Assembly: GCA_046497275.1 (NCBI GenBank)
Contig: JAWOFX010000088.1
Span: 96,384-120,383 of the forward strand
Direction: 5' to 3'
Source of the DNA: Promethearchaeia archaeon
Lineage (GTDB): Archaea > Asgardarchaeota > Lokiarchaeia > Sigyniarchaeales > SOKP01
Length of the DNA: 24,000 nt
A program made the position numbers and the translations under genes. Every line of letters begins with the position of its first letter. Positions within the stretch are counted from its first letter, which is position 1. Below, one piece after another: positions 3,555 to 23,821 of this stretch. A model generated the notes under the pieces. It was not told where the DNA came from. It searched no databases and saw only the letters and a list, made by a program, of their open reading frames with translations.

Positions 3555-5720
3555 TTATTTTAGTTTATTATTTTCATAGATCTCATAAAACCAATCCACA
3601 ATATATTGATAGAAAAATCTTTCTCGGAGAACGTCATAATGCGATTTTTCTCTAAGACTTGTAAGCTTTGCAATATCCTCTGATTTGATTTTCGATTGTT
3701 TAATTAAATTCATACGTGCTTTAAATTGATCGACCATATCTATCGGCCTTAGTATAATTGAAATCGCTTCTGAAATTGTATCAATTATATCATTTAAGTT
3801 ATCAATACCTAGTGATTTTTCTCGATTCGATTTTAATAAATAAGATTGAATTTTTTCTATGAGAGGATCTTTTCTTTCATAGTTAATTAACTCTCTGTTT
3901 TTAATTAGATTGTCTAAAAACTTTATAATATCATTAATCACGACTATATCGATATTTAAATTCTCTAATTGTGTTTTCAACTTTATTAGAAATTGTCTCT
4001 TTAGAAATTGTTTATATTTAATTATAATTGCCTCATTCTCTCTGATATCTGAGCAAACCTCAACTAATTCGCCTTTCGGTGTCGCATAAGTGAATCCATG
4101 ACCTTGCGGCCCTAAACCACCTAATAATACCATTGATAAGCTATGAAATTTATAAGAATCTGTTGATAATATCTCTTGTTCGTTATCAAGAATATTCTTA
4201 GGGGAAACTAAATGCTTCTTAACTTCTCTCTCTTCTCGTTCTTGCAAAGTTCCATAATAATTTATACGATATCTATACAAAATATTAAATTCTAAAAAAC
4301 CATCTTCCTTTAGCTCTTCTCTTCGGCTATTTTTATAATGTTTTTTAAATTCTTTGAGAAAATGTAGGGTTGACCCTAAATTCTTAACACTCAATCCATA
4401 GATAGAGTATGCATTAAAGAAAGAATTTTTAATATAATAGATAAGTTGATCAATATTACTATAAAATGAATAAGCATTAGGATAATTTACAAAATATTCA
4501 TAAAGATTCCTTGGAAGAACTTTATATACAAAATAAATTAGAAAATCATTTACAGGACCAAAAAGATCTTTTAAATTGGCTAAAAATAGTTTATCTTTCT
4601 TTATTTTTTTTATTTTTTTTAACTTTTGCTCATTAAGTTCTCTAGTTAATAAATTATATTTATTACAAAATCTTATGGTATCTATCACTTTTCCTAGACT
4701 GGACGTTTGATATCCGACGGTCACATCTTGAATACAATTGATTATAAGTTGTGAAATAATTTTAAATCGATTTGGAATCTTTTCTACTTCAATAAATATA
4801 TCAAATTTATCCGAATTTTTAATTAGTTGCTTAAACTTATCAAAATGACCCGCTTCTAGATCTTTTGCTAATCCTTTGTAAAAATTTTCCTCAATTTTCT
4901 TTTTATTTTCTGCTTTTAAAAGAATCCGAGATAAATTAATCTCTCCCTCATCTTCAATTATATGATCTATTGTATATTTTATTTTCTGAAATTCTCCAGA
5001 TTTTAGAGATTCTATTATTGTTTCAATAATTAATTCTTGAATATCGTTAGTATTTTTTTTTAATTTGTGATGAGAAATTTCATTTTTCTCTATAAATTTA
5101 TAGAAGAAAATTAAGTATTTTAAATTTCCAATTCCTAAAAAATAATCAAATGAATCTCTGAATAATTTAGTCATAAAGGTTAAAATTCTTTCCTTATTAC
5201 TTCCCTTTTCAAATGATTTGTCTTCCTTATATTTCTCAATCCAATCTCTTAAATAAATTATAAAAAGAGGTAAATTATCTGTATTATAAAAAATCTGAAC
5301 ATTTTTCTGACATCTTCTACAGAAATAAATCATTCTATTTTCATTGAATGCATAAGAACCCTCAGATATATCCTCTGAATGACATTCAGTACATAATTTT
5401 TCAAATAATAATTTTTCGATTAATTCTTCTAAAAATTCAATTTTAAGATTCTTGATAACTTCAAAATCAATAATCTCATTCTCTATTAAAACCCAGAGAT
5501 AAGATCCAAACTCTAAAAAAATAGGTTTGAAGAAACGAATTTTATCAGAATTATCTAACTTTTTATATTCTTGAGTTATATTATAGATTTTCTCAGCGAG
5601 CTTTATTTCTTTAGTGGCGACTTTCTTTCTAATATCATTTAAATCCAGTTTGCCTTTTTTAATAATATTAAATATATCGTTTTTTAAATTGCCATAAAAT
5701 TGCTCAGAGAGAATATGCAT
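3555..5720 (-). CDS. Large K/E/I/N-rich, predicted alpha-helical protein with an internal CxxC-x22-CxxC zinc ribbon; no recognisable family
   Basis: 721-aa uninterrupted ORF starting with ATG. Zinc ribbon CTECHSEDISEGSYAFNENRMIYFCRRCQ (aa 110-137, nt 5310-5393). No P-loop or other catalytic motif seen. It lies 77 nt downstream of the Roadblock gene on the same strand. Confidence 0.7.
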   Translation of the reverse strand: MHILSEQFYGNLKNDIFNIIKKGKLDLNDIRKKVATKEIKLAEKIYNITQEYKKLDNSDKIRFFKPIFLEFGSYLWVLIENEIIDFEVIKNLKIEFLEELIEKLLFEKLCTECHSEDISEGSYAFNENRMIYFCRRCQKNVQIFYNTDNLPLFIIYLRDWIEKYKEDKSFEKGSNKERILTFMTKLFRDSFDYFLGIGNLKYLIFFYKFIEKNEISHHKLKKNTNDIQELIIETIIESLKSGEFQKIKYTIDHIIEDEGEINLSRILLKAENKKKIEENFYKGLAKDLEAGHFDKFKQLIKNSDKFDIFIEVEKIPNRFKIISQLIINCIQDVTVGYQTSSLGKVIDTIRFCNKYNLLTRELNEQKLKKIKKIKKDKLFLANLKDLFGPVNDFLIYFVYKVLPRNLYEYFVNYPNAYSFYSNIDQLIYYIKNSFFNAYSIYGLSVKNLGSTLHFLKEFKKHYKNSRREELKEDGFLEFNILYRYRINYYGTLQEREEREVKKHLVSPKNILDNEQEILSTDSYKFHSLSMVLLGGLGPQGHGFTYATPKGELVEVCSDIRENEAIIIKYKQFLKRQFLIKLKTQLENLNIDIVVINDIIKFLDNLIKNRELINYERKDPLIEKIQSYLLKSNREKSLGIDNLNDIIDTISEAISIILRPIDMVDQFKARMNLIKQSKIKSEDIAKLTSLREKSHYDVLRERFFYQYIVDWFYEIYENNKLK

Positions 5721-10511: not shown

Positions 10512-10622
10512 TAGTGAAGATTCTATTATTTTATTTTAAAGCGTGAAGAGAATAAACTTTAATAAATTTTTAAAATTGATTATATTAATTTTAGTTATTT
10601 AGGAAATGAAAAAAAATTGCTA

Positions 10623-12464
10623 ATGTTGAAAAAAAGAAAAATTTACTTGCTAACAACGATTTTCATATCAATCTTTATCATTAGTTCCTTTATTTCAATA
10701 TTTGATTATAATACTTGCTATAATCGTTCAAATTATGAACTACCTAAGACAGCTTCAAGCATAGAAGGAGCTTCCGATATTATAATCTCTAAAATTAATC
10801 GAACTATTGATATAAACGGATTTGGATTAACAAATTTTAAGGATTCTTTAACAATTAAAAATGAATATAATAATCCTGTCTCCTCAATTTTGATAGGAAT
10901 TCCATCTAATATTTATGATGATTTAATATATTATGAAGCAACTGGTATGGGGAAAAATAGTTTATTGGTGGAAGAGACTGATATCATAATGGATAATAAT
11001 AAAATGATGTTAGCAATATATTTTGATTCTCCACTGCTTCCTCAAGAATCTAAATCAATAATTCTCTCCCATTCTTATAAGGAACTTTTACAATACCAAC
11101 CCTCAGGGGAAAATCAAAAGATTTCTTTTACTGGAATAGTTTATCCGCTTTTCCCTTATAAAGCAGAAGGATTAATAAAAACAATTGTTATTCTGCCAAT
11201 TGGATCGACTATCATTAATTCCGATTTTTGGGGGGAGAATAACGATAATTTAATAATTTATGACCTTGAAGAATTAACCCAATCATATTTAGAACCATTT
11301 TTAGAAAACTTAGGGGAAGATAAAATAATTGAGTTATCATTCACCCATCCTTCCAAAACAAGATTGGAAATACAAAAATCCACAAGGGAAATAACAATTT
11401 CCCCGTGGGGAGTGATTAAAGTGAAAGAGAGTATTTTAATTAGGAATCTCGGCTCTATAGATCTTGGAAAATTTAACTTAAAAATACCAAAAGGGGCTCG
11501 CAATGCGAAAACAACCGATCATTTAGGGGAAATTGATGGAACTACTGTGACAGATTTACCGAATAATCCCAAATCCAAACAAATTAATCTGGATCTTACA
11601 AATAATAGGGTGACAATGAATCCAGACTCGAGTTTCAGATTTACATTAACATATCAATTAAATCTGGCAGATTATGTATCTTATAACTGGTTCAAACAAT
11701 CAATACAAATGGATATAATAACAACACGCTGTGATTTTTTAGTAAGAGATCAAATTACAAAAATCATCATAGAAAGCTCTCTTAGCATAACTGATATTTC
11801 TAATCTTCCAAATGAATTTGATGAATCGGTTGCATCTAGCATTCTCGTCTATGAATCAGATTACATTAGCAATATTGAAGAGAATAAAATTTTATTGACT
11901 TATACTCTAGATATTTTTGAAATGTTCCTCAGACCGCTAATAATTTTATTATTAATTGCATCACTGTGTTCGGGGTTTATCCTTTTTATTAAGAAAAGAA
12001 AGCAAATGGGCATTTTACCTATGATTGAAAAAGAAGAGATTCCTATAAAAGAGATCAGAGAGTTTTGTTCACTCTATGAGCAAAAAAATGCCCTTACATT
12101 AGAAATTCGAGAAGCAGAAGAGGAACTTAAGCGACGTAAATTAACTAAAAAACAATATCGTAATCTTGTTGATAAAAATGAATCAAAACTAAAGGATATT
12201 GATGAGGAAATAAAACCTTTTAAGAAAGAATTGATGGAAACAAATCAAACTTTTGAAAGCATGATAAAAAAACTAGATGTTTTAGAAGCGGAACGGCAAA
12301 CGGTCGAGGATGGATTAAAATTATTGGAAAGCAGATATAAAAAAGGGAAACTTCCTTCAAGATCAGCTTATGTAAAATTAACCAATGATTTTTTAAATAG
12401 ACGAAAAAAGATTGACAGAACAATATCTCGTTTTATACAACAATTACGTTCTTATCTCCTTTAA
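10623..12464 (+). CDS. Ribophorin I / OST1-like oligosaccharyltransferase subunit homologue
   Basis: Signal anchor, ~410-aa external domain, one TM (nt 11925-11990) followed by KKRK, then a ~155-aa coiled-coil tail. Motifs collinear with human RPN1 from memory: KINRTID (nt 10791-10811), ISFTGIVYPLFPY, ISPWGVIKVKE (nt 11397-11429). I prefer ATG 10623 to the TTG at 10617 in the track. Confidence 0.72.
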   Translation: MLKKRKIYLLTTIFISIFIISSFISIFDYNTCYNRSNYELPKTASSIEGASDIIISKINRTIDINGFGLTNFKDSLTIKNEYNNPVSSILIGIPSNIYDDLIYYEATGMGKNSLLVEETDIIMDNNKMMLAIYFDSPLLPQESKSIILSHSYKELLQYQPSGENQKISFTGIVYPLFPYKAEGLIKTIVILPIGSTIINSDFWGENNDNLIIYDLEELTQSYLEPFLENLGEDKIIELSFTHPSKTRLEIQKSTREITISPWGVIKVKESILIRNLGSIDLGKFNLKIPKGARNAKTTDHLGEIDGTTVTDLPNNPKSKQINLDLTNNRVTMNPDSSFRFTLTYQLNLADYVSYNWFKQSIQMDIITTRCDFLVRDQITKIIIESSLSITDISNLPNEFDESVASSILVYESDYISNIEENKILLTYTLDIFEMFLRPLIILLLIASLCSGFILFIKKRKQMGILPMIEKEEIPIKEIREFCSLYEQKNALTLEIREAEEELKRRKLTKKQYRNLVDKNESKLKDIDEEIKPFKKELMETNQTFESMIKKLDVLEAERQTVEDGLKLLESRYKKGKLPSRSAYVKLTNDFLNRRKKIDRTISRFIQQLRSYLL

Positions 12465-12516: not shown

Positions 12517-13143
12517 ATGAGACTCTGGTTATTTGATATCCTTGCATGTCCGATATGCAAGCATTATCCACTTAAGTTATACATCTTTTCGTATCAAGCA
12601 GAAGAAGATAAATTCAAAAAATATCTTAAAGATTACAATGAGAATACTTTTAATTATGAAAATCAGGATATTTTAAAAATATCTCAAGATAGTGAAGAAA
12701 AAATTTTGATTAAGGATGAAATTGTAATTGAGAAAAAACCTATAATTAAATATCTTGAAGATATTCTCACTAGTGTTGAAGAATTAAAAAATATCGAAGA
12801 TCTGAGTTCTTACGAAAAAAGCAAGAAATGCCTTTCCATTGCAAGAGAAAAGATTTTTGAGCAATTAATTGAATTCTCCAAAAAATCAGACTTAGATCAC
12901 ATTGAATCTATAATACCTGAACTTATTTTTCTGAATAAATTAAAAATTGACGCAGAAATTGAATCTGGTATTTTATTCTGCAATGAATGCAATAGATGGT
13001 TTCCCATTATCGATACAATTCCTCGGATGTTACCAGATGAGTATAGAGACAAAGCAAAGGAACTCGATTTCTTAAAAAGCAAAAAGGATATATTAAATGA
13101 AGAATTTTTTAATTTGGATCTAAAACCTTTTAATCTACAATAA
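12517..13143 (+). CDS. Trm112-family zinc-ribbon protein with a ~125-aa central insertion
   Basis: N-terminal LFDILACPICKHYPLKL and C-terminal GILFCNECNRWFPIIDTIPRMLPDE are the two halves of the Trm112p/DUF343 zinc knuckle (C11, C14, C155, C158). They are separated by a K/E-rich insert (nt ~12589-12960). Confidence 0.7.
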   Translation: MRLWLFDILACPICKHYPLKLYIFSYQAEEDKFKKYLKDYNENTFNYENQDILKISQDSEEKILIKDEIVIEKKPIIKYLEDILTSVEELKNIEDLSSYEKSKKCLSIAREKIFEQLIEFSKKSDLDHIESIIPELIFLNKLKIDAEIESGILFCNECNRWFPIIDTIPRMLPDEYRDKAKELDFLKSKKDILNEEFFNLDLKPFNLQ

Positions 13144-14572: not shown

Positions 14573-15937
14573 ATGGAATCTCCAACAGACATTCAATGGG
14601 ACTTTTTTAGCATCCTTTTTCTCTTATTTTCAGCGACTATAGGATTTATCATAACATATTTAATTATGCCACATTTAATCAGATACATGAAAAAGAAAGG
14701 TTTTATGGGAATTGATATCCATAAAAATTCCAAACCAGAAGTTGCTGAATCCGGAGGGTTGGGGATGCTAATAGGATTCATTGCATCATCAACTTTTTTA
14801 TATCTCGTTTTTCCTCTGTATAGAAATATCATTTTAATTGTCCAAATGACACTTATTATTGCAGGGGTTATTGGATTTATTGACGATAGAATTAGATTGA
14901 GAACCCGCTATAAATTATTATTAACTCTTAGTCTTGGAATTATAATTTTCCTCTCTAACTATTTAGAATTTATAAATATTAAAAATCCAGTGCTTCCAAT
15001 TTTAAGCCAGTTAAGACTTAATTTAATTTATCCAATTTTAATTCCTTTAGTGGTAACAGTATTCGCAAATACTGTTAATATGTTAGAGGGATATAATGGA
15101 GAAGGATCTGGTACAAGTATCATCTCTATTGCTTTTCTATTAATATGCAGTTTAATTTGGAATACAATGGAAGGTTTAATGTTTTCTCTGATTTCTCTTT
15201 CGGTTATAATACCATTTTATTTTTTCAATAAGTATCCGGCAAAAGTCTTTCCAGGTGATGTTGGAACACTCTCTATGGGTGTTATGATAGCAAGTATCGC
15301 TCTTTTTGGTGGCTTACTGCCTGCGGCATTCTGTACACTTTTAACTCATGTATTTAACAGTTTTTATTATATATCTTCTGTAAGAGGGTTTTTTGAGAGT
15401 GAGAAAATTCATGAATTAAGAGATGATATTATCTTACTTGGAGATGATAAAATTAAGCCCTCGGAGGAAAAAGAAGCTCTTCTCACCATGCCACGTCTTA
15501 TTTTAGTCAAAGGTCCTTTAACTGAATCTAAATTGGTTAAAAATCTCTTCCTAATATCACTTATTAGCGGTTTTTTAGGAATTATAACCACTTTTCTTAT
15601 GTGTTGGACTATAGGAGAAATCAATATCCTTTATCTTCTAACCTTTTCCATACCATGTTTTATTATGATTGGATTATTAGTATTTTTCTTTCCAAGAATT
15701 AGAGATATTGCTCTTCAGATGATAATATTATATTTTATCGGAATTATAATATTGTATCTTATAGATTTTCTAATAGTTCCAATTCAAATAACTGTAGATT
15801 TATATTTTATTAAAATACCCGTAAATATTTTACTTTCAATACTTATAATTATTCCAGGATTAATTTTATGGTACATAATAACTATTTTTTACGTGAATAG
15901 GAAATTAACTTTAAATAATAAATCAATTCAAAAATAA
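14573..15937 (+). CDS. Polyprenyl(dolichyl)-phosphate N-acetylhexosamine-1-phosphate transferase, AglH/Alg7(GPT)/WecA/MraY superfamily
   Basis: 454-aa polytopic membrane protein. GFIDDR (DD at nt 14882-14887). NTVNMLEGYNGEGSG (compare the eukaryotic/archaeal NxxNxxAGxNGLExG). VFPGDVGTLSMG (the xxGDxG Asp motif). A ~60-aa cytosolic loop is followed by extra C-terminal helices. Confidence 0.85.
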   Translation: MESPTDIQWDFFSILFLLFSATIGFIITYLIMPHLIRYMKKKGFMGIDIHKNSKPEVAESGGLGMLIGFIASSTFLYLVFPLYRNIILIVQMTLIIAGVIGFIDDRIRLRTRYKLLLTLSLGIIIFLSNYLEFINIKNPVLPILSQLRLNLIYPILIPLVVTVFANTVNMLEGYNGEGSGTSIISIAFLLICSLIWNTMEGLMFSLISLSVIIPFYFFNKYPAKVFPGDVGTLSMGVMIASIALFGGLLPAAFCTLLTHVFNSFYYISSVRGFFESEKIHELRDDIILLGDDKIKPSEEKEALLTMPRLILVKGPLTESKLVKNLFLISLISGFLGIITTFLMCWTIGEINILYLLTFSIPCFIMIGLLVFFFPRIRDIALQMIILYFIGIIILYLIDFLIVPIQITVDLYFIKIPVNILLSILIIIPGLILWYIITIFYVNRKLTLNNKSIQK

Positions 15938-16101: not shown

Positions 16102-18471
16102 TTGACAGATTGGTCTTTTTTTATTACCATTGTTTTCTATATAATAAGCTTAGAAGAGTTCTATGTGTATGTAAAGAATGGTCAGAGAAGTGAACTTTCT
16201 GATATTGTTGCGATTATTTTTTTCTTCTTTTTAATCTATTTTTTAACGAAAGATCTTCTGACCTCTTTAATGGGTTCTTTTTCCATTTATCTTTGGGTTG
16301 GAGTTGCTGAATTAAAGGAATATCCTGTAATAAACAAGATTTTGGTAATTTCTTTAGTGACTTACAATATAATTTTCGTTTCTGGATTAATTTCAAAATT
16401 TTTAAATAATCCTATTGTTTTAAATACTTCTTTTTCCTTTTCCTTTTGGATAATTTTGATTTTAGGATTTATTTTATTCGGACGAAAATATATTGTCGTT
16501 TGGAGATTTATGAGTCCCCAATATCTAACGCTTTTTCTCTATATTCTCGGCTGGATTGGTGTAGTATTCATAAATCAATATACTCCCATCGATTTTCTTC
16601 AATATATTTATATTATTCTAATTCTCATGAATGTATTGATTTATTTCTTTTCTGGATTTTTATTGGATAAACTTCTGGGTATTAAGAGAATAAATAATGA
16701 AAAAATTAATTCCATCGTTAATGAAGTAAAAAAAAATATTGGAATTAATAGTAATGTTAAAATAGGGCTTGGAAAATATCCCATTGTGAACGCAATGGCC
16801 TACGGGCCTTTTTTAGACAAGAGGATTGCGATTATTGCTGAAGATCTTGAAAAAATTCCAGAAGATGAGATAAAGGGAATTATTGCTCATGAATTAGCCC
16901 ATACCAAAGCTAATCATACTTTAATATTAGGGTTTATAACTATATTCGATTTAATTATAAGAGGAATTATTGGATTTCCAGCAACTTATTACGATTACAC
17001 ATTTGGTAATCCTCAAATCCCATTCATCTTTTTTCTCGTGATTAATTTTGGAGTCTATATATTTTTATATTTTTTCGTAAGAATTTTAGAAGGTTTTGCA
17101 GATAGGATTGCTAAGAATTCAGGTTATGGGCAAGAACTTGTAAAAGCTCTCTATAATTTAGAGAGTTTTTATGCTTCAGGCAGAGAAATTGGATTAAATA
17201 CTATGCTATTATGCGAAGAAAAAATCTCCAGAGAAAATAAGATATTAGATTATATGGAAACGGCTCAATATCTCAATAATTCAATTATAAAACCGTCTAA
17301 AATCTCTCTTCTTGGGAATTTCCTTAACTCGCATCCCCCGACTTATCATAGAGTTATAGCAATTTTAAGCGATGAGATAAGTCCTTATAAAGAAACCTTG
17401 TTACCTCTAATGCATCTAAGATCTAAAAATCAGAAAAAATTTGCTCAACAATATAATAAAACAAGAAAAAAATTCAAAGAAATCACAAATCAAAAATTCA
17501 AAGAGATGTTTAATATCGAAGATATATCTAAATTTCTTAGTACTTTGGAACTTAGAGAAAAACACAAACATGAACTTTTCAAAAATTATCTATTCAAAAA
17601 TCTTATTACAGGAAAATATATCTATGGGCAAGTAAGAGATATTAAGTTTGAAAATGATATCAATAATTTCTTCTATGAAATTTTCAATCACGAAACAATG
17701 ATAATTGAAAATTTAAACTCTTCGCACTATACGAAAAAAGAAGTTAATGTCGGTGATCATTATATTTTTTCAAAAAAAAAATTATTGAAGCTAAAAAGGA
17801 TTCAATTTGATGAGGACTATAATAATGGATTTTATTATTTCTCAGATAAATATAATCTTGAAATTAAAAAGGCTATTAAAAAAACCAAAATACCGTTCTC
17901 GGTAGAAAATCTCCAAAATTTTGTCGGTAATGAAGTATTTTTTAAAAAAAGAGGAGTATTAGAAATAGCCCACTGCACCTCTCTTTATGAAAAAGAAGAA
18001 AAATTAGAGGAATATGTGATAAAATTAAAAAACTCTTTTCATGATATTGAAGGATATGAAACTACGGCTTTAAAATTAAAAGAATTACTTATTAAACCTA
18101 AAAATATTCAATTTGAAATTAAGAAAAATGAACAAAATAAGGATGATACCAGAAAAATTTTAAACTGGATATTGAAAAATCAAATTAGAACGTATTTTTA
18201 TTTGAAAAAACCTGTAAATAACTTAGAAATTGGTTATCTTCAAAATATTTTTCATAATTCAGAACAAGAAAAACAAATGAAAAAATTTCCATTATTTATA
18301 GAAATAAGAACAATTTTTAACGAATTTAAAAAAATAAATTTGGAAATAATTGAATTTGTAAGCTTTGCATTCAATACTGGAATTATTCAACTGAAATCTG
18401 AAATAAGCCTCTTTTCAAAAATTGGATATCATCTCTTAAAAAAAATAAAACCACAAAAGATCTATATATAG
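16102..18471 (+). CDS. M48-family zinc metalloprotease (HtpX/Ste24 superfamily) with an extended polytopic N-terminus and a ~360-aa C-terminal domain of unknown function
   Basis: PIVNAMAYGPF...IIAHELAHTKANH (HExxH at nt 16888-16902), two TM helices, then RILEGFADRIA (third-ligand Glu) and NSHPPTYHRVIAIL. About 7 hydrophobic helices precede the catalytic domain. The start is uncertain: TTG at 16102, and the frame is open from 15988. Confidence 0.8.
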   Translation: MTDWSFFITIVFYIISLEEFYVYVKNGQRSELSDIVAIIFFFFLIYFLTKDLLTSLMGSFSIYLWVGVAELKEYPVINKILVISLVTYNIIFVSGLISKFLNNPIVLNTSFSFSFWIILILGFILFGRKYIVVWRFMSPQYLTLFLYILGWIGVVFINQYTPIDFLQYIYIILILMNVLIYFFSGFLLDKLLGIKRINNEKINSIVNEVKKNIGINSNVKIGLGKYPIVNAMAYGPFLDKRIAIIAEDLEKIPEDEIKGIIAHELAHTKANHTLILGFITIFDLIIRGIIGFPATYYDYTFGNPQIPFIFFLVINFGVYIFLYFFVRILEGFADRIAKNSGYGQELVKALYNLESFYASGREIGLNTMLLCEEKISRENKILDYMETAQYLNNSIIKPSKISLLGNFLNSHPPTYHRVIAILSDEISPYKETLLPLMHLRSKNQKKFAQQYNKTRKKFKEITNQKFKEMFNIEDISKFLSTLELREKHKHELFKNYLFKNLITGKYIYGQVRDIKFENDINNFFYEIFNHETMIIENLNSSHYTKKEVNVGDHYIFSKKKLLKLKRIQFDEDYNNGFYYFSDKYNLEIKKAIKKTKIPFSVENLQNFVGNEVFFKKRGVLEIAHCTSLYEKEEKLEEYVIKLKNSFHDIEGYETTALKLKELLIKPKNIQFEIKKNEQNKDDTRKILNWILKNQIRTYFYLKKPVNNLEIGYLQNIFHNSEQEKQMKKFPLFIEIRTIFNEFKKINLEIIEFVSFAFNTGIIQLKSEISLFSKIGYHLLKKIKPQKIYI

Positions 18472-18510: not shown

Positions 18511-19464
18511 ATGTTAGAACGGATACACCATTTAATAAATCTCATAAGAGTAAGACAATATTACAAAAACGTTTTAGTCTTTGTTGGATTGTTCTTTAGT
18601 GTTAATTTATTTACTGTTGAATATTGGTATCCGTTAATTATTGGATTTATTTTACTCTGTCTAACCTCCTCCGTCAATTATATTGTAAATGATATAGTAG
18701 ATATTGAAAGTGATAAGAAACATCCTGATAAGTTAAAAAAAAAACCTCTCGCATCCGGAGATTTATCTATTTCTTTTGCGGTTGGTTTATTGATATTAAT
18801 CGTTTTTATAATTATAATTAGTTTATTATTTATTGTTCCAAATATCCCTTTCGCTATTTTATTACTTTTAATAATTTTTACCGGTCAACTTTATAATCAT
18901 TTTTTTAAAAGATATGCTTTTATTGATATTTTATCTCTATCAACAGGATATTTATGGAGAGCCTTGGCTGGCTGCGTATTGATTAATCAATTTATTTCCG
19001 CATGGTTATTTCTTTCCATATTTGAACTTGCTCTTTTTTTAGTAATTTCAAAAAGAAAAGGAGATCTTATGATATTGGGGAGTAAAGAAGATGCGGTAAA
19101 ACATAAAAAGGTGTATAATCAATATTCGATAAAATTGTTAGATCAATTTCACGTAATAACTGCTGGCTCTATTTTTATGACTTATAGCCTTTATTTAATT
19201 TTCAAGTTCGAATTATTTACTGAGGGTGAGTTTAATCCAAATGAATATATAACAATCCTTACAATTCCAATTATTCTTTTTATATTAATGCGTTATATGT
19301 ATCTTACATCAGCAAAACCCGAGCTAGCAAGAAACATTGAGAAAGCACTTTTTGATAAAGGTATCTTAATAGCAGGAATATTTTTAGGAGCAATTTTATT
19401 ATATTCATTTTATTTTGAACAAATTATAGAAATTCTAAACCTTATTTTTAATTTAAATCTTTAA
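18511..19464 (+). CDS. UbiA-superfamily polyprenyl-phosphate phosphoribosyltransferase-like enzyme (DPPR synthase / Rv3806c-type)
   Basis: IRVRQYYKNVLVFVGLFF (compare RPRQWVKNVLVL). NDIVDIESDKKHPDKLKKKPLASG (NDxxDxxxDxxHPxKxxxPxAxG). Later SKRKGDL...HKKVYNQYS. About 8 TM helices. Family-specific motifs are from memory of the mycobacterial enzyme. Confidence 0.75.
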   Translation: MLERIHHLINLIRVRQYYKNVLVFVGLFFSVNLFTVEYWYPLIIGFILLCLTSSVNYIVNDIVDIESDKKHPDKLKKKPLASGDLSISFAVGLLILIVFIIIISLLFIVPNIPFAILLLLIIFTGQLYNHFFKRYAFIDILSLSTGYLWRALAGCVLINQFISAWLFLSIFELALFLVISKRKGDLMILGSKEDAVKHKKVYNQYSIKLLDQFHVITAGSIFMTYSLYLIFKFELFTEGEFNPNEYITILTIPIILFILMRYMYLTSAKPELARNIEKALFDKGILIAGIFLGAILLYSFYFEQIIEILNLIFNLNL

Positions 19465-19487
19465 AAAAATAATAATTAAAAAAAAAA

Positions 19488-20174
19488 TTGACAAATATCC
19501 GATTAGATCTCCATGTTCATACAACATTTTCGGTCGATTCTTTAATTCCCCCTCAAAAATTAATAAAATATGCCATAAATAAAGGCTTAGATGGCTTAGC
19601 AATATGTGATCATAACACAATTAAAGCTTATGATAAGTTAAAAAGAAATGCTGAAGAGAATGATTTTTTATTAATACCTGGAATGGAGATTGAAACAAAA
19701 GTCGGGGAAGTAATCGGGCTTTTTATTGAAAATGAAATTAATACAAATAATAAGGATTTTTTTGAAATTGTCCATCAAATTAGGGATTGTAATGGTCTAG
19801 TGATCATTCCTCATCCATTTGATTTTTTAAGACGAAATCATCTAAAAACAGATCTATTAAGCGACAAAATTATACAAAAATATATCGATGGTGTAGAAAT
19901 CATCAATTCTCGAATAATTTTTAATTATTGCATCAAAAAAGCTCTAAAATTTAAAAATAAATATAATTTATTTGAAACAGCTGGTTCCGATGCTCATTAT
20001 TACAAAGAAATTGGAAATGGTTTCACTTTAATAAAAAATTTTGATGGAAATTCACTTGATGAGGTTAAGAAGGCTTTATTATCTAAAAAATCAAAAAGTT
20101 TGGGTAAAAGATCTTCCCCTCTTTATCATATGATAACTGTATTAAATAAATTAAAAATGAGACAATACTTTTAA
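19488..20174 (+). CDS. PHP-domain metal-dependent phosphoesterase (COG0613 / TrpH-YciV-like)
   Basis: DLHVHTTFSVDS, AICDHNT, GMEIET, IIPHPFD and GSDAH are the PHP metal-ligand motifs, in order. TTG at 19488 is the only start-like codon between the upstream in-frame stop (19473-19475) and the conserved DLHVHT. Confidence 0.85.
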   Translation: MTNIRLDLHVHTTFSVDSLIPPQKLIKYAINKGLDGLAICDHNTIKAYDKLKRNAEENDFLLIPGMEIETKVGEVIGLFIENEINTNNKDFFEIVHQIRDCNGLVIIPHPFDFLRRNHLKTDLLSDKIIQKYIDGVEIINSRIIFNYCIKKALKFKNKYNLFETAGSDAHYYKEIGNGFTLIKNFDGNSLDEVKKALLSKKSKSLGKRSSPLYHMITVLNKLKMRQYF

Positions 20175-20180
20175 AAAATA

Positions 20181-21338
20181 ATGAGTTCATCTAAAAATCC
20201 CAAAATTTTTGTTGTTAAAACAAAACCAGAAACGGTTTTACAAGATTATCAACGCCTTATGCATATGGCGAATTATATAGATCATTTTTCTAAAGAACAA
20301 AAGATTTTGCTGAAATTAAATTTGAGTTGGTCGAAGTTTTTTCCCGCTTGTTCGAGTCCTCCATGGCAATTGGAAGGAGTTTTAAAAACGATGGTTGGTG
20401 ACGGGTTTAACCCCCGAAATTTGTTTACTTGCGAGAATAGAACAGTTGTCACTAATATCGCACGTGGGTTGAGGGGGAATCGTTGGGCACCCATCATAAA
20501 AGAGTATGGCGTTTGGTTTGTGCCATTAACACGGGTTCCTTTTGTCCCTTATGAATCTCTCCGAGATGAGTTTCTTACATTAAAGAATAAAGAACTTCAT
20601 GCATTGGATTCAAAAATTTTTCCCGATGGATTTAGCATTCCTAAATTCTATCTGAATAAGCCGATCATTCATATGCCAACCATAAAAACTCATGGGCATA
20701 CAGGAGTAAAAAAAGGGAATAGGAGACAGGGTCTTACTTGCTGTATGAAAAACGCATTTGGAGGATTACTTACTAAAAGAAGGCACTTTTCTCATCAATT
20801 TATGTCAGAAGTACTCGTAGATCTATTAATCATTCAGAAACAAATTCATCCAGAAATCATGGGTATTGTTGACGGGACTGTATGCGGGGATGGTGCTGGT
20901 CCACGTACGATGATTCCGAGAATTAAAAATTATTTACTCGGGGGTTACGATCAAGTTGCAGTTGATTCCGTGGTAGCAAAAATGCTTGGTTTTGAACCAT
21001 TAAAGTTGCCCGCAATTAAATTAGCCCATGACGAAGGTCTTGGGTGTGGTGATTTTGATCAAATAGAAATAATAGGTGAAGATATATCCAATGTTAATTG
21101 GAATTTTACTTTGAAACGGAGCTTGGTTATTTGGGGAGATCAAATGGTTAGAAAAGGACCTTTGAGTTTTTTACACCCTCTCTTTCATAATAGGTTATTT
21201 ATGGCACTCCCTATACTTGGAAGCCTAGTTTTTCATGATATGTTCTGGTATCCAACAATAGGAAAACAGAGAATCAAAAAATTTATGACTACAAAATGGG
21301 GGAAATTATTTCAAGAATATCCGGCTGATTCAGATTAG
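20181..21338 (+). CDS. DUF362 domain protein
   Basis: ILLKLNLSW..., MPTIKTHGHTG...LTCCMKNAFGGLL, IVDGTVCGDGAGP and GGYDQVAVDSVVAKMLGFEP match my memory of the DUF362 consensus (KpN..., lKtH..tg.T...KN.fG, vvDg...G.GP, D.vavD.v...lmG.dP). Confidence 0.75.
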   Translation: MSSSKNPKIFVVKTKPETVLQDYQRLMHMANYIDHFSKEQKILLKLNLSWSKFFPACSSPPWQLEGVLKTMVGDGFNPRNLFTCENRTVVTNIARGLRGNRWAPIIKEYGVWFVPLTRVPFVPYESLRDEFLTLKNKELHALDSKIFPDGFSIPKFYLNKPIIHMPTIKTHGHTGVKKGNRRQGLTCCMKNAFGGLLTKRRHFSHQFMSEVLVDLLIIQKQIHPEIMGIVDGTVCGDGAGPRTMIPRIKNYLLGGYDQVAVDSVVAKMLGFEPLKLPAIKLAHDEGLGCGDFDQIEIIGEDISNVNWNFTLKRSLVIWGDQMVRKGPLSFLHPLFHNRLFMALPILGSLVFHDMFWYPTIGKQRIKKFMTTKWGKLFQEYPADSD

Positions 21339-22951: not shown

Positions 22952-23821
22952 CTATTTAGGAAATTGTTTTATTAATCTTTTTTGATTGATGATATCAAAT
23001 GCTTCATAAATAGTAATCTTACAATTCAAAAGACCAAAAACCAAAGTTTTGAGAAGCTCAATATTATTGTTCAAAAATGAAATATAATTTAATTCTTTTT
23101 TAAGCTTTTCTTTTATCTCTTTATCTGTTTTTTTCAATTCAAAAAATTTCAAATAGTTCTCTTCATTAACCTTAATCCCTTTTCTCAAAGCTAAAATAAT
23201 AGCTGAAGCTTCGTGTTTAGAGATATTTTGGAATAGTTTATGAAATTTAAATTTTGACGACTTTAATTCATTTATTAAATAGATTATAACTTTCTCTTGA
23301 TTACCGAAAAGACTATAAATTTCTGTGATAAGTTCTAAACTCAGAGGAAATACTCCTCTACCAATCTTAAAAGTAAGTTTTAGTTTACTATTGCTTTCAT
23401 CTTCTACATTCTTAACACAATTTTTAACGTTTGAGAGGAGTTCTTTTTTATTATAGAATGTTTTTGAATAGAAAAAATGTCCATCTAAAAATACAATCAA
23501 TCCAATAGTTTTTCCTGGATCTATTGAAAGTAGTAATTTTGAGTGATTTCCGAAACCACAATGGTAAATCTTAAGAAAATTAAAAAAATACTTATCAAAA
23601 TTCTCTTCATCCTTATATGGAATAAAATTTACTTTTTTATTGTTATAATTATTGATTTTAAAAACTTCTTTTAAGGTTGTAAGAACTATTGAATCAACAT
23701 TTGGAATATGTTGTCCTAAATTCAAGACTGTGAATGGAATTCCTAATTTCTTCAATTCTTTATTGAGTCTGAAGAAAAATTTTGAATTATTTGTAATTAC
23801 AAATACTATTTTTTCTCTCAA
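22952..23821 (-). CDS. Hypothetical protein; possible RNase H-fold (RuvC/YqgF-like) nuclease domain
   Basis: 289-aa ORF with a TTG start, so the N-terminus is uncertain. LLSIDPGKTIGLIVF resembles the first-strand IDPG motif of RuvC/YqgF. KHEASAIILALRKG resembles their C-terminal D/E-x-SA-x-IL helix. The similarity is motif-level only. Confidence 0.45.
   Translation of the reverse strand: MREKIVFVITNNSKFFFRLNKELKKLGIPFTVLNLGQHIPNVDSIVLTTLKEVFKINNYNNKKVNFIPYKDEENFDKYFFNFLKIYHCGFGNHSKLLLSIDPGKTIGLIVFLDGHFFYSKTFYNKKELLSNVKNCVKNVEDESNSKLKLTFKIGRGVFPLSLELITEIYSLFGNQEKVIIYLINELKSSKFKFHKLFQNISKHEASAIILALRKGIKVNEENYLKFFELKKTDKEIKEKLKKELNYISFLNNNIELLKTLVFGLLNCKITIYEAFDIINQKRLIKQFPK

Follow-up and report, generated by a model that had tools for sequence, protein, structure and literature searches.

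Pathways to lipid-linked pentofuranose donors

The decaprenyl-phosphoarabinose pathway of mycobacteria employs the transferase Rv3806c (DPPRS), the PAP2 protein Rv3807c, the pair DprE1/DprE2, the SMR protein Rv3789 and the GT-C enzymes Emb and Aft. In mycobacteria the gene for the dedicated phosphatase need not lie with that for the transferase. In Gram-negative bacteria a comparable route is taken by three-component systems, in which a PRPP-dependent transferase of the UbiA type generates lipid-phosphate ribofuranose. These systems also require a distinct 5-phosphatase activity, and may have a cytoplasmic epimerase that acts ahead of flipping. That of Citrobacter youngae O1/O2 comprises the PRP-PPPRS protein ORF15, a MATE flippase and a GT-C of family GT136, with the optional SDR epimerase ORF13 (Kelly et al., 2024; PMC11127046). 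The phosphatase step cannot be dispensed with, whereas epimerization is optional, and both are performed by non-orthologous enzymes that differ with lineage (PMC11127046).

We have analyzed a stretch of 24,000 nucleotides from a Promethearchaeia archaeon (hereafter the window), containing adjacent genes for a UbiA-superfamily protein, a PHP phosphoesterase and a DUF362 protein. A sequence-only reading of the window had taken this triad for a candidate undescribed pathway to a lipid-linked pentose donor. As a pathway it is not new; PPPRS, variable phosphatase, optional epimerase, flippase and GT-C constitute an established and widespread bacterial system (PMC11127046). The novelty lies in which proteins supply two of the components, and in the archaeal setting. 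From sequence, structural models and analogy with the described systems, we propose that the triad forms the cytoplasmic part of a pathway from PRPP to a polyprenyl- or dolichyl-phosphate pentofuranose donor, in which the PHP protein would be the 5-phosphatase and the DUF362 protein an epimerase-like enzyme. We assign this reading a probability of about 60%.

The locus and its surroundings

The features of the window that are relevant here are as follows.

10617 to 12464, + strand: Ribophorin I (Ost1)-like protein, 615 aa (Pfam Ribophorin_I, 2.9e-18)
14573 to 15937, + strand: Glycos_transf_4 protein (AglH/Alg7/WecA-type polyprenyl-phosphate HexNAc-1-P transferase), 454 aa (Pfam, 3.6e-30)
16102 to 18471, + strand: M48 (HtpX/Ste24-type) membrane metalloprotease, 789 aa (Pfam Peptidase_M48, 4.7e-16)
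18511 to 19464, + strand: UbiA-superfamily protein of the PPPRS/DPPRS type, 317 aa, ATG start
19488 to 20174, + strand: PHP phosphoesterase (PHP + PHP_C), candidate 5-phosphatase, 228 aa, TTG start
20181 to 21338, + strand: DUF362 protein with a predicted LarA-like fold, candidate epimerase on lipid-linked ribose, 385 aa, ATG start

Direct reading of the sequence gives gaps of 23 nt between the UbiA and PHP genes and 6 nt between the PHP and DUF362 genes, exactly as had been noted earlier for these three same-strand genes. The adjoining N-glycosylation neighborhood is also real, with Ribophorin I, DUF354, Glycos_transf_4 and GT1 all situated 5′ of the triad. A scan of every open reading frame of at least 130 aa in the window found no homologue of PAP2, DprE1 or DprE2, so the mycobacterial partners are indeed missing. 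Unlike the three-component systems, no flippase or GT-C was recognized in the window.

The M48 gene ends 39 nt before the start of the UbiA gene, and lies directly 5′ of it in 36 of the 39 Loki-type loci with enough flanking sequence. Glycos_transf_4 is kept 5′ of the M48-UbiA pair in Loki loci, and the order Ribophorin, GT4, M48, UbiA repeats in Loki metagenome loci. Outside Asgard, M48 is absent among the recurrent neighbors. The protease is probably lineage-specific context, and not a component of the pathway.

The UbiA protein resembles a phosphoribosyltransferase

At the level of Pfam the first protein is seen only as a member of the generic UbiA family (2.9e-19, above the gathering score), and homologues are labelled 4-hydroxybenzoate polyprenyltransferase in some sources. 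It might thus be an ordinary prenyltransferase of the DGGGP synthase, quinone or haem O type, in which case no pentose donor would be made. However, the best NCBIfam match is the DPPRS model NF008977 (1.7e-54), with 185.3 bits, where the models of 4HB-transferase and haem O synthase reach 26. The score lies below the equivalog cutoff of 234, and the protein is under cutoff for all three NCBIfam DPPRS models (185, 132 and 96 bits). By NCBI's rule it is therefore not an equivalog, and by sequence we class it as a divergent archaeal member of the DPPRS group.

Comparison with known structures agrees with this. Searching the PDB with the single sequence at E ≤ 0.01 returned Rv3806c (8j8j) alone (2.7e-20), the two proteins being 26% identical over 218 residues. 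With a profile, Rv3806c was found at 8e-25 and the second match, AfUbiA, at 1.8e-4. The AF2 model is all-helical (pLDDT 79.8), and was aligned with 8j8j by Foldseek with TM 0.81/0.88, an rmsd of 2.9 Å and E = 1.7e-9. The corresponding TM values are 0.62-0.70 for AfUbiA, 0.58/0.65 for DGGGPS and 0.53/0.59 for ApUbiA.

Both sequence motifs previously associated with DPPRS are present, RvRQyyKNvLVF at residues 13-24 and NDivDiesDkkHPdKlkkkPLASG. In the second, four residues separate K from PLASG, one more than in Rv3806c; the sequence-only reading had written three, a trivial discrepancy. In Rv3806c, Mg2+ is bound by N73 and D77, and pyrophosphate by a K/R cluster of R22, K87, R90 and K143. The 5-phosphoribose is contacted by K28, Y70 and Y157, which are specific to phosphoribose and not conserved in ordinary UbiA enzymes, and the lipid phosphate is contacted by K191 (PMC10994848). 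Residues R22, K28, Y70, N73, D77 and K87 align with R13, K19, Y57, N60, D64 and K74 of the window protein, and R90, Y138, K143, Y157, K191 and K208 with K78, Y128, K133, Y147, K181 and K200. Twelve of the 13 functional residues are thus kept, 11 of them identical and one a change of arginine to lysine (R90 to K78). The exception is Q135, which is aligned to G125, beside Q126. A similar pattern holds across 36 UbiA proteins linked to DUF362, where Q135 and K208 vary and the remaining 11 of the 13 are kept. The positions contacting Mg2+, pyrophosphate, phosphoribose and lipid phosphate are kept in 35-36 of the 36, position 157 being Y or F.

The HMM and PDB matches, the similarity of fold to Rv3806c and the 12 retained functional residues together indicate that the UbiA protein is a polyprenyl-phosphate phosphoribosyltransferase of the PPPRS/DPPRS type and not a prenyltransferase. 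By HMM, by sequence match in the PDB and by fold it groups with Rv3806c rather than with DGGGPS, AfUbiA or ApUbiA, and its earlier assignment to the DPPR-synthase branch stands. The retention of the PRPP-specific residues adds to this, and the prenyltransferase alternative is largely refuted; we regard it as scarcely credible.

The PHP protein is a candidate 5-phosphatase

The second protein matches Pfam PHP (5.3e-13, 50.1 bits; cutoff 26.4) and PHP_C (1.3e-11, 44.3 bits; cutoff 21.3). It has this domain pair in common with 3′,5′-nucleoside bisphosphate phosphatases, RNase AM/YciV and histidinol phosphatases (PDB 3e0f, 2anu), and several members of the PHP family hydrolyze phosphomonoesters on ribose. 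Its matches in NCBIfam and the PDB are at the generic superfamily level only, and it lies far under every equivalog cutoff of the specific subfamilies. At the 3′,5′-nucleoside bisphosphate phosphatase / RNase AM equivalog level the scores are 50.2 versus 400 and 47.4 versus 375 bits, for matches that cover only the N-terminal 70 residues. At 228 aa it is also shorter than the known subfamilies, and its partners are PPPRS and DUF362 rather than genes of nucleotide or histidine metabolism. The earlier suggestion of a non-orthologous phosphatase is credible, but the kinship claimed with nucleoside-bisphosphate enzymes gives way to membership of the PHP superfamily in general.

Alignment of 21 orthologues shows little or no variation at D7, H9, H11, D17, D41, H42, E67, H109, D112, R115, E137, N140, R142, D168 and H170. 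The metal ligands among them (H9, H11, D17, H42, E67, H109, D168 and H170) are invariant, making up the full His/Asp/Glu set of the PHP-family phosphoesterases. Judged by its sequence, the protein has a complete and intact metal-binding and catalytic site.

Orthologues adjoin UbiA and/or DUF362 in Loki, Parvarchaeota (L050), Methanobacterium (L066) and Chloroflexi (L059, L069 and L078), and it is from this genomic association that we infer the PHP protein to be the candidate 5-phosphatase of the pathway. It is not beside UbiA in most Loki relatives, an Opp/Dpp-type ABC-transporter operon being found 3′ of UbiA in 29 of the 43 Loki-type loci, and it is missing from most bacterial UbiA-DUF362 pairs. 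The PHP protein must therefore be dispensable or replaceable.

The DUF362 protein has a LarA-like fold in the predicted structure

Residues 42-266 of the third protein match Pfam DUF362 (PF04015; 1.6e-13, 51.6 bits; cutoff 24). A structure prediction had been proposed in the sequence-only reading, and the AF2 model (pLDDT 91.6, pTM 0.92) gave a LarA-like fold. The five best fold matches in the PDB by Foldseek are all LarA or LarA-like (9eia, 9eid, 9q3j and 9q3k), and LarA structures are the sole significant ones. The probabilities are 0.97-1.0 over ~291-298 aligned columns, with TM-scores of only 0.30-0.40. DUF362 and LarA share Pfam clan CL0471, and their similarity in sequence or profile is not significant. 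The model thus indicates a two-domain fold like that of LarA, a nickel-pincer racemase, with kinship at the level of fold and clan only.

In LarA, the cofactor and catalytic residues are R75, H108, H174, K184 and H200 (L. plantarum numbering). The DUF362 motif KTH...MKN...RH resembles EPH174...GGRK184...NH200, and H171, K190, H202 and H205 are invariant in the orthologues. In one hhalign run, which was not significant, KTH171...K190 was paired with EPH174...K184, while another, also not significant, paired H223/R242 with H174/K184, a conflicting register. Given these two registers, the non-significant profile alignment and the low TM-scores, the equivalence of H171/K190/H202 to H174/K184/H200 is no more than putative. 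Unlike the situation in LarA, the cofactor-binding residues are not demonstrably conserved, and the LarA C-terminal domain is missing from the sequence of DUF362, whose hydrophobic C-terminal extension is peculiar to it.

DUF362 is 73-85% identical among Loki/Hermod MAGs. Across 81 orthologues (40-77% identity) ~25 polar or ionizable residues are invariant. Those conserved in at least 95% comprise K45, N47, W62, Q63, N86, N100, H164, K169, H171, K190, N191, R201, H202, H205, D214, H223, D231, R242, D257, D262 and H283. Some DUF362 genes contain inteins, which sit exactly at K169|T170 within the invariant motif PTxKTH.

These properties bear on whether DUF362 is an enzyme at all. It could be a partner that regulates the transferase or supports it without catalysis, for instance as an assembly factor or as a subunit for PRPP delivery or membrane docking, given that the UbiA-DUF362 adjacency is very tight with frequent gene overlap, suggesting co-translation or complex formation, that the hydrophobic C-terminal segment is conserved, and that the cofactor-binding site is putative only. 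We consider this quite improbable, since the fold is an enzyme fold, and both the number of invariant polar residues and the insertion of inteins within an invariant motif are typical of catalytic sites. With its LarA fold and clan, the density of invariant His, Lys, Arg and Asp and the intein site, DUF362 looks like an enzyme.

LarA works by reversibly abstracting a hydride beside a hydroxyl group, as would be required of a sugar 2- or 3-epimerase, and the modelled fold suggests epimerase-type chemistry for DUF362. Against this, the characterized enzymes of the LarA clan all use 2-hydroxy acids to our knowledge, never sugars or lipids. The candidate substrate of DUF362 is a lipid-linked sugar, whereas those known for LarA are small. 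The reaction within the pathway, and its chemistry, are hypothetical.

DUF362 recurs beside PPPRS-type UbiA genes

Loci anchored on DUF362 were examined over ~20 kb (10 kb flanks, some being short). In the scan of named genomes UbiA was the top neighbor cluster, present in 32 loci compared with 10 for the second. Outside Lokiarchaeia a PPPRS-type UbiA is likewise the commonest neighbor: of 71 loci, 31 contain UbiA at some position, and of 59, 21 have it immediately 5′ of DUF362, in the same orientation and no more than 150 nt away. It was not seen in the other 40 of the 71, some with short flanks; these 40 include EPS loci of Zixibacteria whose flanks extend for the full 10 kb. The hosts of UbiA-DUF362 pairs include Acidobacteria, Chloroflexi, Firmicutes, Planctomycetes, WOR-3, Actinobacteria, DPANN and Methanobacterium. 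The link is far stronger and wider than the earlier reading could know, and DUF362 emerges as a genuine functional partner of PPPRS-type UbiA, although the third step once proposed for it stays hypothetical.

DUF362 and PHP are found together in nine loci. The full triad occurs outside Loki in DPANN and Methanobacterium, and three Chloroflexi loci have PHP-DUF362 without nearby UbiA. The pairwise adjacency of the three families thus recurs in unrelated phyla, confirming an association beyond chance.

Could DUF362 itself be the phosphatase? The pathway would be the same, with DUF362 hydrolyzing the ribose 5-phosphate as the general phosphatase of the PPPRS clade, and PHP acting elsewhere, for example in polyprenyl diphosphate recycling or PPi hydrolysis. 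In bacteria, UbiA-DUF362 pairs mostly stand as two-gene islands without any recognizable phosphatase nearby, even though this is the obligatory step (PMC11127046), and the many invariant His and Asp residues of DUF362 could bind metals. However, the absence of a phosphatase from a locus is weak evidence, since in mycobacteria it can lie apart from the transferase, and phosphatases of the LarA/DUF362 fold are not known. Moreover, a dedicated PHP accompanies DUF362 in four lineages, and in Bryobacteraceae DUF362 stands alongside a HAD (PRP)-UbiA fusion resembling the characterized ORF15, in which HAD is the proven 5-phosphatase. From its co-occurrence with both PHP and the HAD-UbiA fusion, DUF362 is probably a step distinct from the phosphatase, and we consider the contrary assignment unlikely.

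The compact arrangement is in the minority among Loki relatives, with PHP adjoining UbiA in 9 of 43 Loki-type UbiA loci, and does not represent a conserved condition of Asgard archaea; the expected synteny held for UbiA-DUF362, which recurs in bacteria, DPANN and methanogens, but much less for the compact triad. In most Loki relatives an Opp/Dpp/Nik-type ABC operon is followed by DUF362 and PHP is missing, and a Hermod contig (L002) has ABC then DUF362 without UbiA, though at 5.3 kb it is too short to show one upstream. This might suggest that the triad of the window is a lineage-specific rearrangement without shared function, PHP and perhaps DUF362 having nothing to do with the UbiA product and DUF362 serving the peptide/nickel ABC transporter or some other process. 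Yet in L009 and L011, where the 10 kb flanks reach both genes, DUF362 lies at the far end of the ABC operon, and UbiA and DUF362 flank the inserted operon without any change in their order or strand. The same pairings also recur independently in distant bacteria and archaea that do not have that operon. We therefore think a functionless rearrangement very unlikely.

Other genes often present around UbiA-DUF362 pairs resemble the later components of the three-component systems. They include the GT-Cs PMT_2, TMEM260 and YfhO, and flippase-like LPG_synthase_TM, SMR, EamA and Wzx-like proteins; BacA is also found. Among 138 neighbors of the pairs, DprE1/E2, SDR, PAP2 and free HAD fall outside the 25 commonest families, in contrast to the mycobacterial pathway.

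A proposed pathway

In the reading we favor, a lipid-linked pentofuranose pathway, UbiA would transfer ribose-5-phosphate from PRPP onto a lipid phosphate in the manner of Rv3806c and Citrobacter ORF15, a step that is strongly indicated. The lipid is presumably dolichyl phosphate, since the host is an archaeon while the three-component systems are Gram-negative. PHP may then remove the 5-phosphate, taking the place of the PAP2 protein (Rv3807c) or HAD (PRP) domain of other lineages. More speculatively, the cytoplasmic DUF362 protein, with its LarA-like fold and hydrophobic C-terminal helix, would act on the lipid-linked ribose, most likely by epimerization at C2 or C3 via transient oxidation and reduction. 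Elsewhere DprE1/DprE2 or an SDR protein performs this task, and the final donor here would be an arabino- or xylo-furanose. To judge solely from other genomes, the system would include as its final components a flippase-like protein and a GT-C, the donor being used by GT-C-type glycosyltransferases on the outer face of the membrane. The order of transferase, phosphatase, epimerase, flipping and GT-C would be that of the mycobacterial pathway, from which gene order and acceptor glycans differ.

The product most likely serves to decorate surface glycans. In the Loki archaeon P. syntrophicum all three N-glycans contain a pentose of unexplained origin (PMC11284389). It is internal, second from the reducing end, which is atypical for a sugar from a lipid-phosphate donor and counts against such a source, but it is possible that this pentose is a product of the pathway. 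The recurrent adjacency to UbiA in many unrelated bacteria and archaea gives the DUF362 family its first testable function.

The triad and its setting in the window

UbiA, PHP and DUF362 are borne out as three same-strand genes running from 18511 to 21338, and the spacers of 23 and 6 nt that had been read from the sequence are confirmed. The features of the window considered here are:

18511-19464, + strand, UbiA; open reading frame with a Pfam match above the gathering score
19488-20174, + strand, PHP; TTG start, open reading frame with a Pfam match above the gathering score
20181-21338, + strand, DUF362; open reading frame with a Pfam match above the gathering score
16102-18471, + strand, M48 (HtpX/Ste24-type) metalloprotease of 789 aa, with ~370 C-terminal residues without an assigned family
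22952-23821, − strand, 289-aa protein with no family match
3555-5720, − strand, 721-aa protein without a family match
485-3061, penicillin-amidase homologue of 858 aa
8683-9813, − strand, radical-SAM/SPASM gene
12517-13143, Trm112-like protein with a large insertion

The M48 protease gene stops 39 nt 5′ of UbiA, and a convergent amino-acid permease gene comes after DUF362. The window is AT-rich (~28% GC) and encodes both Ribophorin I and a Roadblock protein. It is Asgard-like, and the nearest homologues of its proteins carry Promethearchaeota or Lokiarchaeota labels. Genes for the partners of the mycobacterial pathway, PAP2, DprE1 and DprE2, were not found in the window, in agreement with the sequence-only reading. 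The 721-aa protein was considered as a missing membrane glycosyltransferase of the GT-C class and was ruled out for want of a family match, a Pfam search being empty even at E ≤ 1.

The UbiA protein resembles decaprenyl-phosphate phosphoribosyltransferase

Does the UbiA protein belong with the decaprenyl-phosphate phosphoribosyltransferases (DPPRS), as had been proposed from two sequence motifs? Both motifs are present, although the spacing of the second had been miscounted by one residue. The three top-scoring NCBIfam models are all DPPRS (185, 132 and 96 bits, with none of the DPPRS equivalog cutoffs reached), and a HAD-UbiA model also scores well; the models for 4-hydroxybenzoate transferase and haem O synthase give just 26 bits. 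The mycobacterial enzyme Rv3806c is the sole PDB sequence match at E ≤ 0.01 (2.7e-20). A profile of 12 Asgard UbiA sequences matches it at 8e-25, the next structure being AfUbiA at 1.8e-4. The AF2 model of the protein (pLDDT 79.8) superimposes on Rv3806c with TM 0.81/0.88 and an rmsd of 2.9 Å, compared with TM values of 0.62-0.70 for AfUbiA, 0.58/0.65 for DGGGP synthase and 0.53/0.59 for ApUbiA. The HMM, PDB and fold rankings thus all place the protein in the DPPR-synthase branch, and it does not cluster with the DGGGP synthases.

The functional residues of Rv3806c have been listed from its structure, and those that bind phosphoribose are not kept in ordinary UbiA enzymes (PMC10994848). In a MAFFT alignment the positions R22, K28, Y70, N73, D77, K87, R90 (as R or K), Y138, K143 and K191 (Rv3806c numbering) are kept in the window protein, and the same ten are kept in 35-36 of 36 UbiAs linked to DUF362. 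The position of Y157 is Y or F, and the only variable positions in these proteins are Q135 and K208. The window UbiA shares 26% of its residues with Rv3806c and the bacterial DUF362-linked UbiAs share 28-40%, a range comparable to the 31-34% of the proven Citrobacter and Pseudomonas enzymes (PMC11127046). On these comparisons of sequence and model, the window UbiA is a predicted phosphoribosyltransferase.

A pathway of this type is known in bacteria. Bacteria widely make alpha-linked pentofuranoses by a route that relies on a polyprenyl-phosphate phosphoribosyltransferase (PPPRS), a 5-phosphatase, a flippase and a GT-C, with a cytoplasmic epimerase as an optional addition (Kelly et al., 2024; PMC11127046). 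The phosphatase varies by lineage, being a HAD PRP domain, a PAP2 protein or a member of another family, and the epimerase is DprE1/E2 leading to Araf or an SDR leading to Xylf; non-orthologous replacement is the rule for both steps (PMC11127046). The pathway logic put forward in the sequence-only reading had therefore already been established. What is new is PHP as a candidate phosphatase family, DUF362 as a conserved partner, and the archaeal setting.

The compact triad is a minority state in Loki relatives

We examined the neighbourhood of UbiA in a metagenome scan anchored on this gene, which recovered 80 loci of Loki type. Identities span 58-97%, and one locus, L085, matches the window at 97%. 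A backbone of Ribophorin I, GT4, M48 and UbiA is strongly conserved, and M48 immediately precedes UbiA in 36 of 39 loci; outside Asgard, M48 has no association with UbiA-DUF362 pairs. The 289-aa protein at 22952-23821 is also kept in Loki loci, beside a protein of ~230 aa.

PHP adjoins UbiA in only 9 of 43 Loki-type loci, comprising seven compact triads and two in which genes are inserted before DUF362. In 29 of the 43, UbiA is followed 3′ instead by an Opp/Dpp/Nik-type ABC operon that encodes a family-5 substrate-binding protein (SBP), a protein of ~155 aa without a family, two permeases and two ATPases. In two loci of the DUF362-anchored scan, L009 (2108-9848) and L011 (2039-9855), this operon separates UbiA from DUF362 by ~8.2 kb, with no PHP there. 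Since DUF362 sits at the far end of the operon, the two genes keep one neighbourhood, strand and order. The synteny expected from the sequence-only reading thus holds for UbiA and DUF362, whereas only a minority of Loki relatives have the compact triad and most lack a local PHP. That interpretation as a whole is supported in part: the UbiA assignment and the missing partners stand; the pathway logic is not new, and the triad is not the usual arrangement in Loki. Some members of the Opp/Dpp/Nik transporter family import nickel, a point that would matter if DUF362 has a nickel cofactor.

DUF362 is paired with UbiA in many phyla

The DUF362 protein is 73-85% identical among many Loki and Hermod MAGs. 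The whole family comprises 2,787 representative clusters at E ≤ 1e-3, and the window-type subfamily 137 at E ≤ 1e-30. GTDB species genomes were scanned with a 14-sequence DUF362 alignment, giving 80 loci, 9 of Loki type and 71 others; the latter, at 40-56% identity, belong to a wide range of bacterial phyla and to other archaea. ORFs called in each locus were searched first with the proteins of the window and afterwards with iterated profiles, and all neighbours were clustered.

The commonest neighbour of DUF362 by far is a PPPRS-type UbiA, found in 32 loci compared with 10 for the next cluster. Of the 59 non-Loki loci with enough flank, 21 have UbiA directly 5′ of DUF362 in the same orientation, no more than 150 nt away and often overlapping it; among all 71, UbiA is present somewhere in 31. 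PHP is again found in this company. Its orthologue occurs with UbiA and DUF362 in a Parvarchaeota locus, and a Methanobacterium locus has the order UbiA, PHP, LPG_synthase_TM, DUF362, PMT_2 GT-C; in three Chloroflexi loci PHP is immediately 3′ of DUF362, with no UbiA nearby. PHP has a PHP plus PHP_C domain architecture and is a generic member of its superfamily. Across 21 orthologues the expected metal ligands are all invariant, and so are two arginines.

Among 138 neighbours of non-Asgard UbiA-DUF362 pairs, the most frequent are PMT_2 GT-Cs (8), followed by LPG_synthase_TM, NTP-transferases, GT1, SMR, EamA and BacA; TMEM260-like and YfhO GT-Cs and one Wzx-like protein were also annotated individually. 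DprE1/E2, SDR epimerases, PAP2 and free HAD proteins do not appear in the 25 most frequent families of this census. In many bacteria UbiA and DUF362 form a two-gene island amid unrelated genes, and thus the pair itself is the conserved unit. The main alternative for the role of DUF362 attaches to these islands, namely that it is itself the phosphatase there.

The DUF362 protein has a LarA-like fold

The DUF362 protein had been assigned an unspecified third step. Neither the single sequence nor a 43-sequence profile matched any solved structure. Structure prediction gave a confident AF2 model (pLDDT 91.6, pTM 0.92) and recovered a LarA-type fold: LarA, the nickel-pincer racemase, and LarA-like nickel-pincer enzymes take the top five places among the PDB fold matches. 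Their probabilities are 0.97-1.0 over ~291-298 aligned columns, with TM only 0.30-0.40; nothing else is close. This accords with Pfam, where DUF362 and the LarA N-terminal domain belong to one clan (PMC11770544).

In 81 DUF362 orthologues the residues K45, N47, W62, Q63, N86, N100, H164, K169, H171, K190, N191, R201, H202, H205, D214, H223, D231, R242, D257, D262 and H283 are at least 95% conserved. We compared these with LarA, using three PDB sequences and a homologue from an Anaerolineae locus (L073). There is a likeness of motif between KTH171, MK190N and RH202 of DUF362 and EPH174, GGRK184 and NH200 of LarA, where H174 is the catalytic histidine, K184 the cofactor-tethering lysine and H200 a nickel ligand. 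A profile comparison of the two families was not significant and gave two conflicting registers. The Anaerolineae homologue (L073:13682-15061, +) is a bona fide LarA, with E 3e-80 to I. pallida LarA and an HMFAGFSGGPK motif. It lies ~2.5 kb 3′ of the DUF362 gene in this one locus, probably by coincidence.

Inteins typically sit in catalytic motifs. Seven DUF362 representative clusters (P0241, P0242, P0247, P0248, P0255, P0256 and P0262) carry an intein, six of them with a match to a LAGLIDADG endonuclease domain. The site is fixed between K169 and T170 of the invariant motif PTxK/TH (~nt 20685-20690 by correspondence to the window); the N-extein ends in LPTVK, the intein begins with Cys, and the C-extein starts from THGHT. 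Seven long representatives that might have been informative fusions are thus intein insertions. Two others (P0385 and P0306) join unrelated domains and appear to be chimeras from gene calling or assembly.

In Asgard DUF362 proteins the invariant H171 and K190 are separated by a loop that is rich in Lys and Gly and specific to this lineage (residues ~172-186, window 20692-20738). It is longer than in bacteria by 9 residues in the window and by 17-18 in most Loki relatives, and starts two residues past K169/T170, the intein site of other lineages.

The protein lacks a signal peptide. Its most hydrophobic segment (~residues 338-353) is in a subfamily-specific C-terminal extension, near the conserved W356, G361, W373 and Y380, and is compatible with a peripheral membrane enzyme.

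A possible epimerase in a lipid-linked pentose pathway

In the pathway we propose, UbiA would very probably convert PRPP and a lipid phosphate into lipid-P-ribose-5-P. The 5-phosphate would then be removed by PHP, as its association in four lineages and precedent suggest, and DUF362 might act as an epimerase or isomerase on the lipid-linked ribose. This role is favoured over that of a phosphatase because DUF362 co-occurs with PHP and with the proven HAD phosphatase type, because the known epimerases are absent from these loci, and because the only related fold is that of hydride-transfer racemases and epimerases. We give this specific chemistry a probability of roughly 0.35-0.4.

The chemistry of the NPN nickel-pincer cofactor extends to sugars in an unrelated fold (PMC13524815), making a sugar substrate less exotic; this offers nothing direct on DUF362. 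The hydride-shuttling enzymes concerned had been considered as DUF362 proteins and were rejected, being of AKR fold; a paper on the acyltransferase TmAT was likewise set aside, as the match was to DUF3623. In the literature searched we found neither a function for DUF362 (PF04015) nor a tie to PPPRS.

A wider proposal, which we consider doubtful, is that this subfamily is a LarA-related epimerase, maybe nickel-pincer-dependent, that would on its own, as one protein, convert polyprenyl- or dolichyl-phosphate ribofuranose into the arabino-, xylo- or lyxo-furanose, replace DprE1/DprE2 across many bacterial phyla and archaea, and supply the pentose of Asgard N-glycans.

With the proposed pathway, DUF362 has for the first time a specific role that can be tested on a defined substrate. 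The lipid-linked pentofuranose pathway would reach archaea (Asgard, DPANN and methanogens) and many uncultured bacterial phyla. PHP would be a third phosphatase family, and DUF362 possibly a third solution for the epimerase. Because DprE1 is validated as a target for tuberculosis drugs, an enzyme of unrelated structure that did its job would, if this is true, be of interest to enzymologists. An epimerase role would also provide the first function for DUF362, and for the LarA clan the first substrate beyond 2-hydroxy acids and the first that is lipid-linked.

A possible product in Asgard N-glycans

Glycoproteomics of the Loki archaeon P. syntrophicum has identified three N-glycans, each with a pentose (e.g., 304.13-Pen-Hex-HexNAc), which is internal in the glycan; they are mainly on a family-5 SBP, the dominant N-glycoprotein, and no gene has been tied to the pentose (PMC11284389). 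The triad is a candidate genetic origin for the pentose in all three, which we offer as a lead and not as evidence. A family-5 SBP gene lies immediately 3′ of UbiA in most Loki loci. None of the best 120 matches to the Loki SBP is a named P. syntrophicum protein, the candidate orthologue being the glycosylated SBP DSAG12_03090. Sugars transferred from lipid-phosphate donors do not typically occupy an internal glycan position.

Other arrangements of DUF362

Three Bryobacteraceae loci (L049, L052 and L055; e.g., L052:9980-16129) share a conserved block of DUF362, a 290-aa protein, an FGE-sulfatase-like protein, a 570-aa secreted protein and, four genes away from DUF362 and on the opposite strand, a UbiA in the form of a 485-aa HAD-UbiA (PRP-PPPRS-type) fusion. 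The 290-aa and 570-aa proteins are uncharacterised. This block may be a distinct pentofuranose system with extra components.

An apparent DUF362-UbiA fusion in Woesearchaeota (L041:8838-10574) was rejected, as the ORF crosses a masked run of N and indicates adjacency only. Such an artefact could mislead automated fusion (Rosetta-stone) screens.

In four Zixibacteria/Ignavibacteria loci (L015, L016, L025 and L037), DUF362 is in an exopolysaccharide-type context, preceded by a TPR/zinc-ribbon protein, a CpsD-like P-loop protein and a polysaccharide deacetylase (DUF3473). UbiA was not detected in these stretches, which for L015 and L025 cover the complete 10 kb flanks. The link to PPPRS is thus not universal for the subfamily.

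Lastly, two or three tandem DUF362 paralogues are found in three loci (L023:3620-11059, L082 and L084), suggesting diversification of the module. The first of these has three paralogues together with two LPG_synthase_TM genes and one PMT_2 GT-C.
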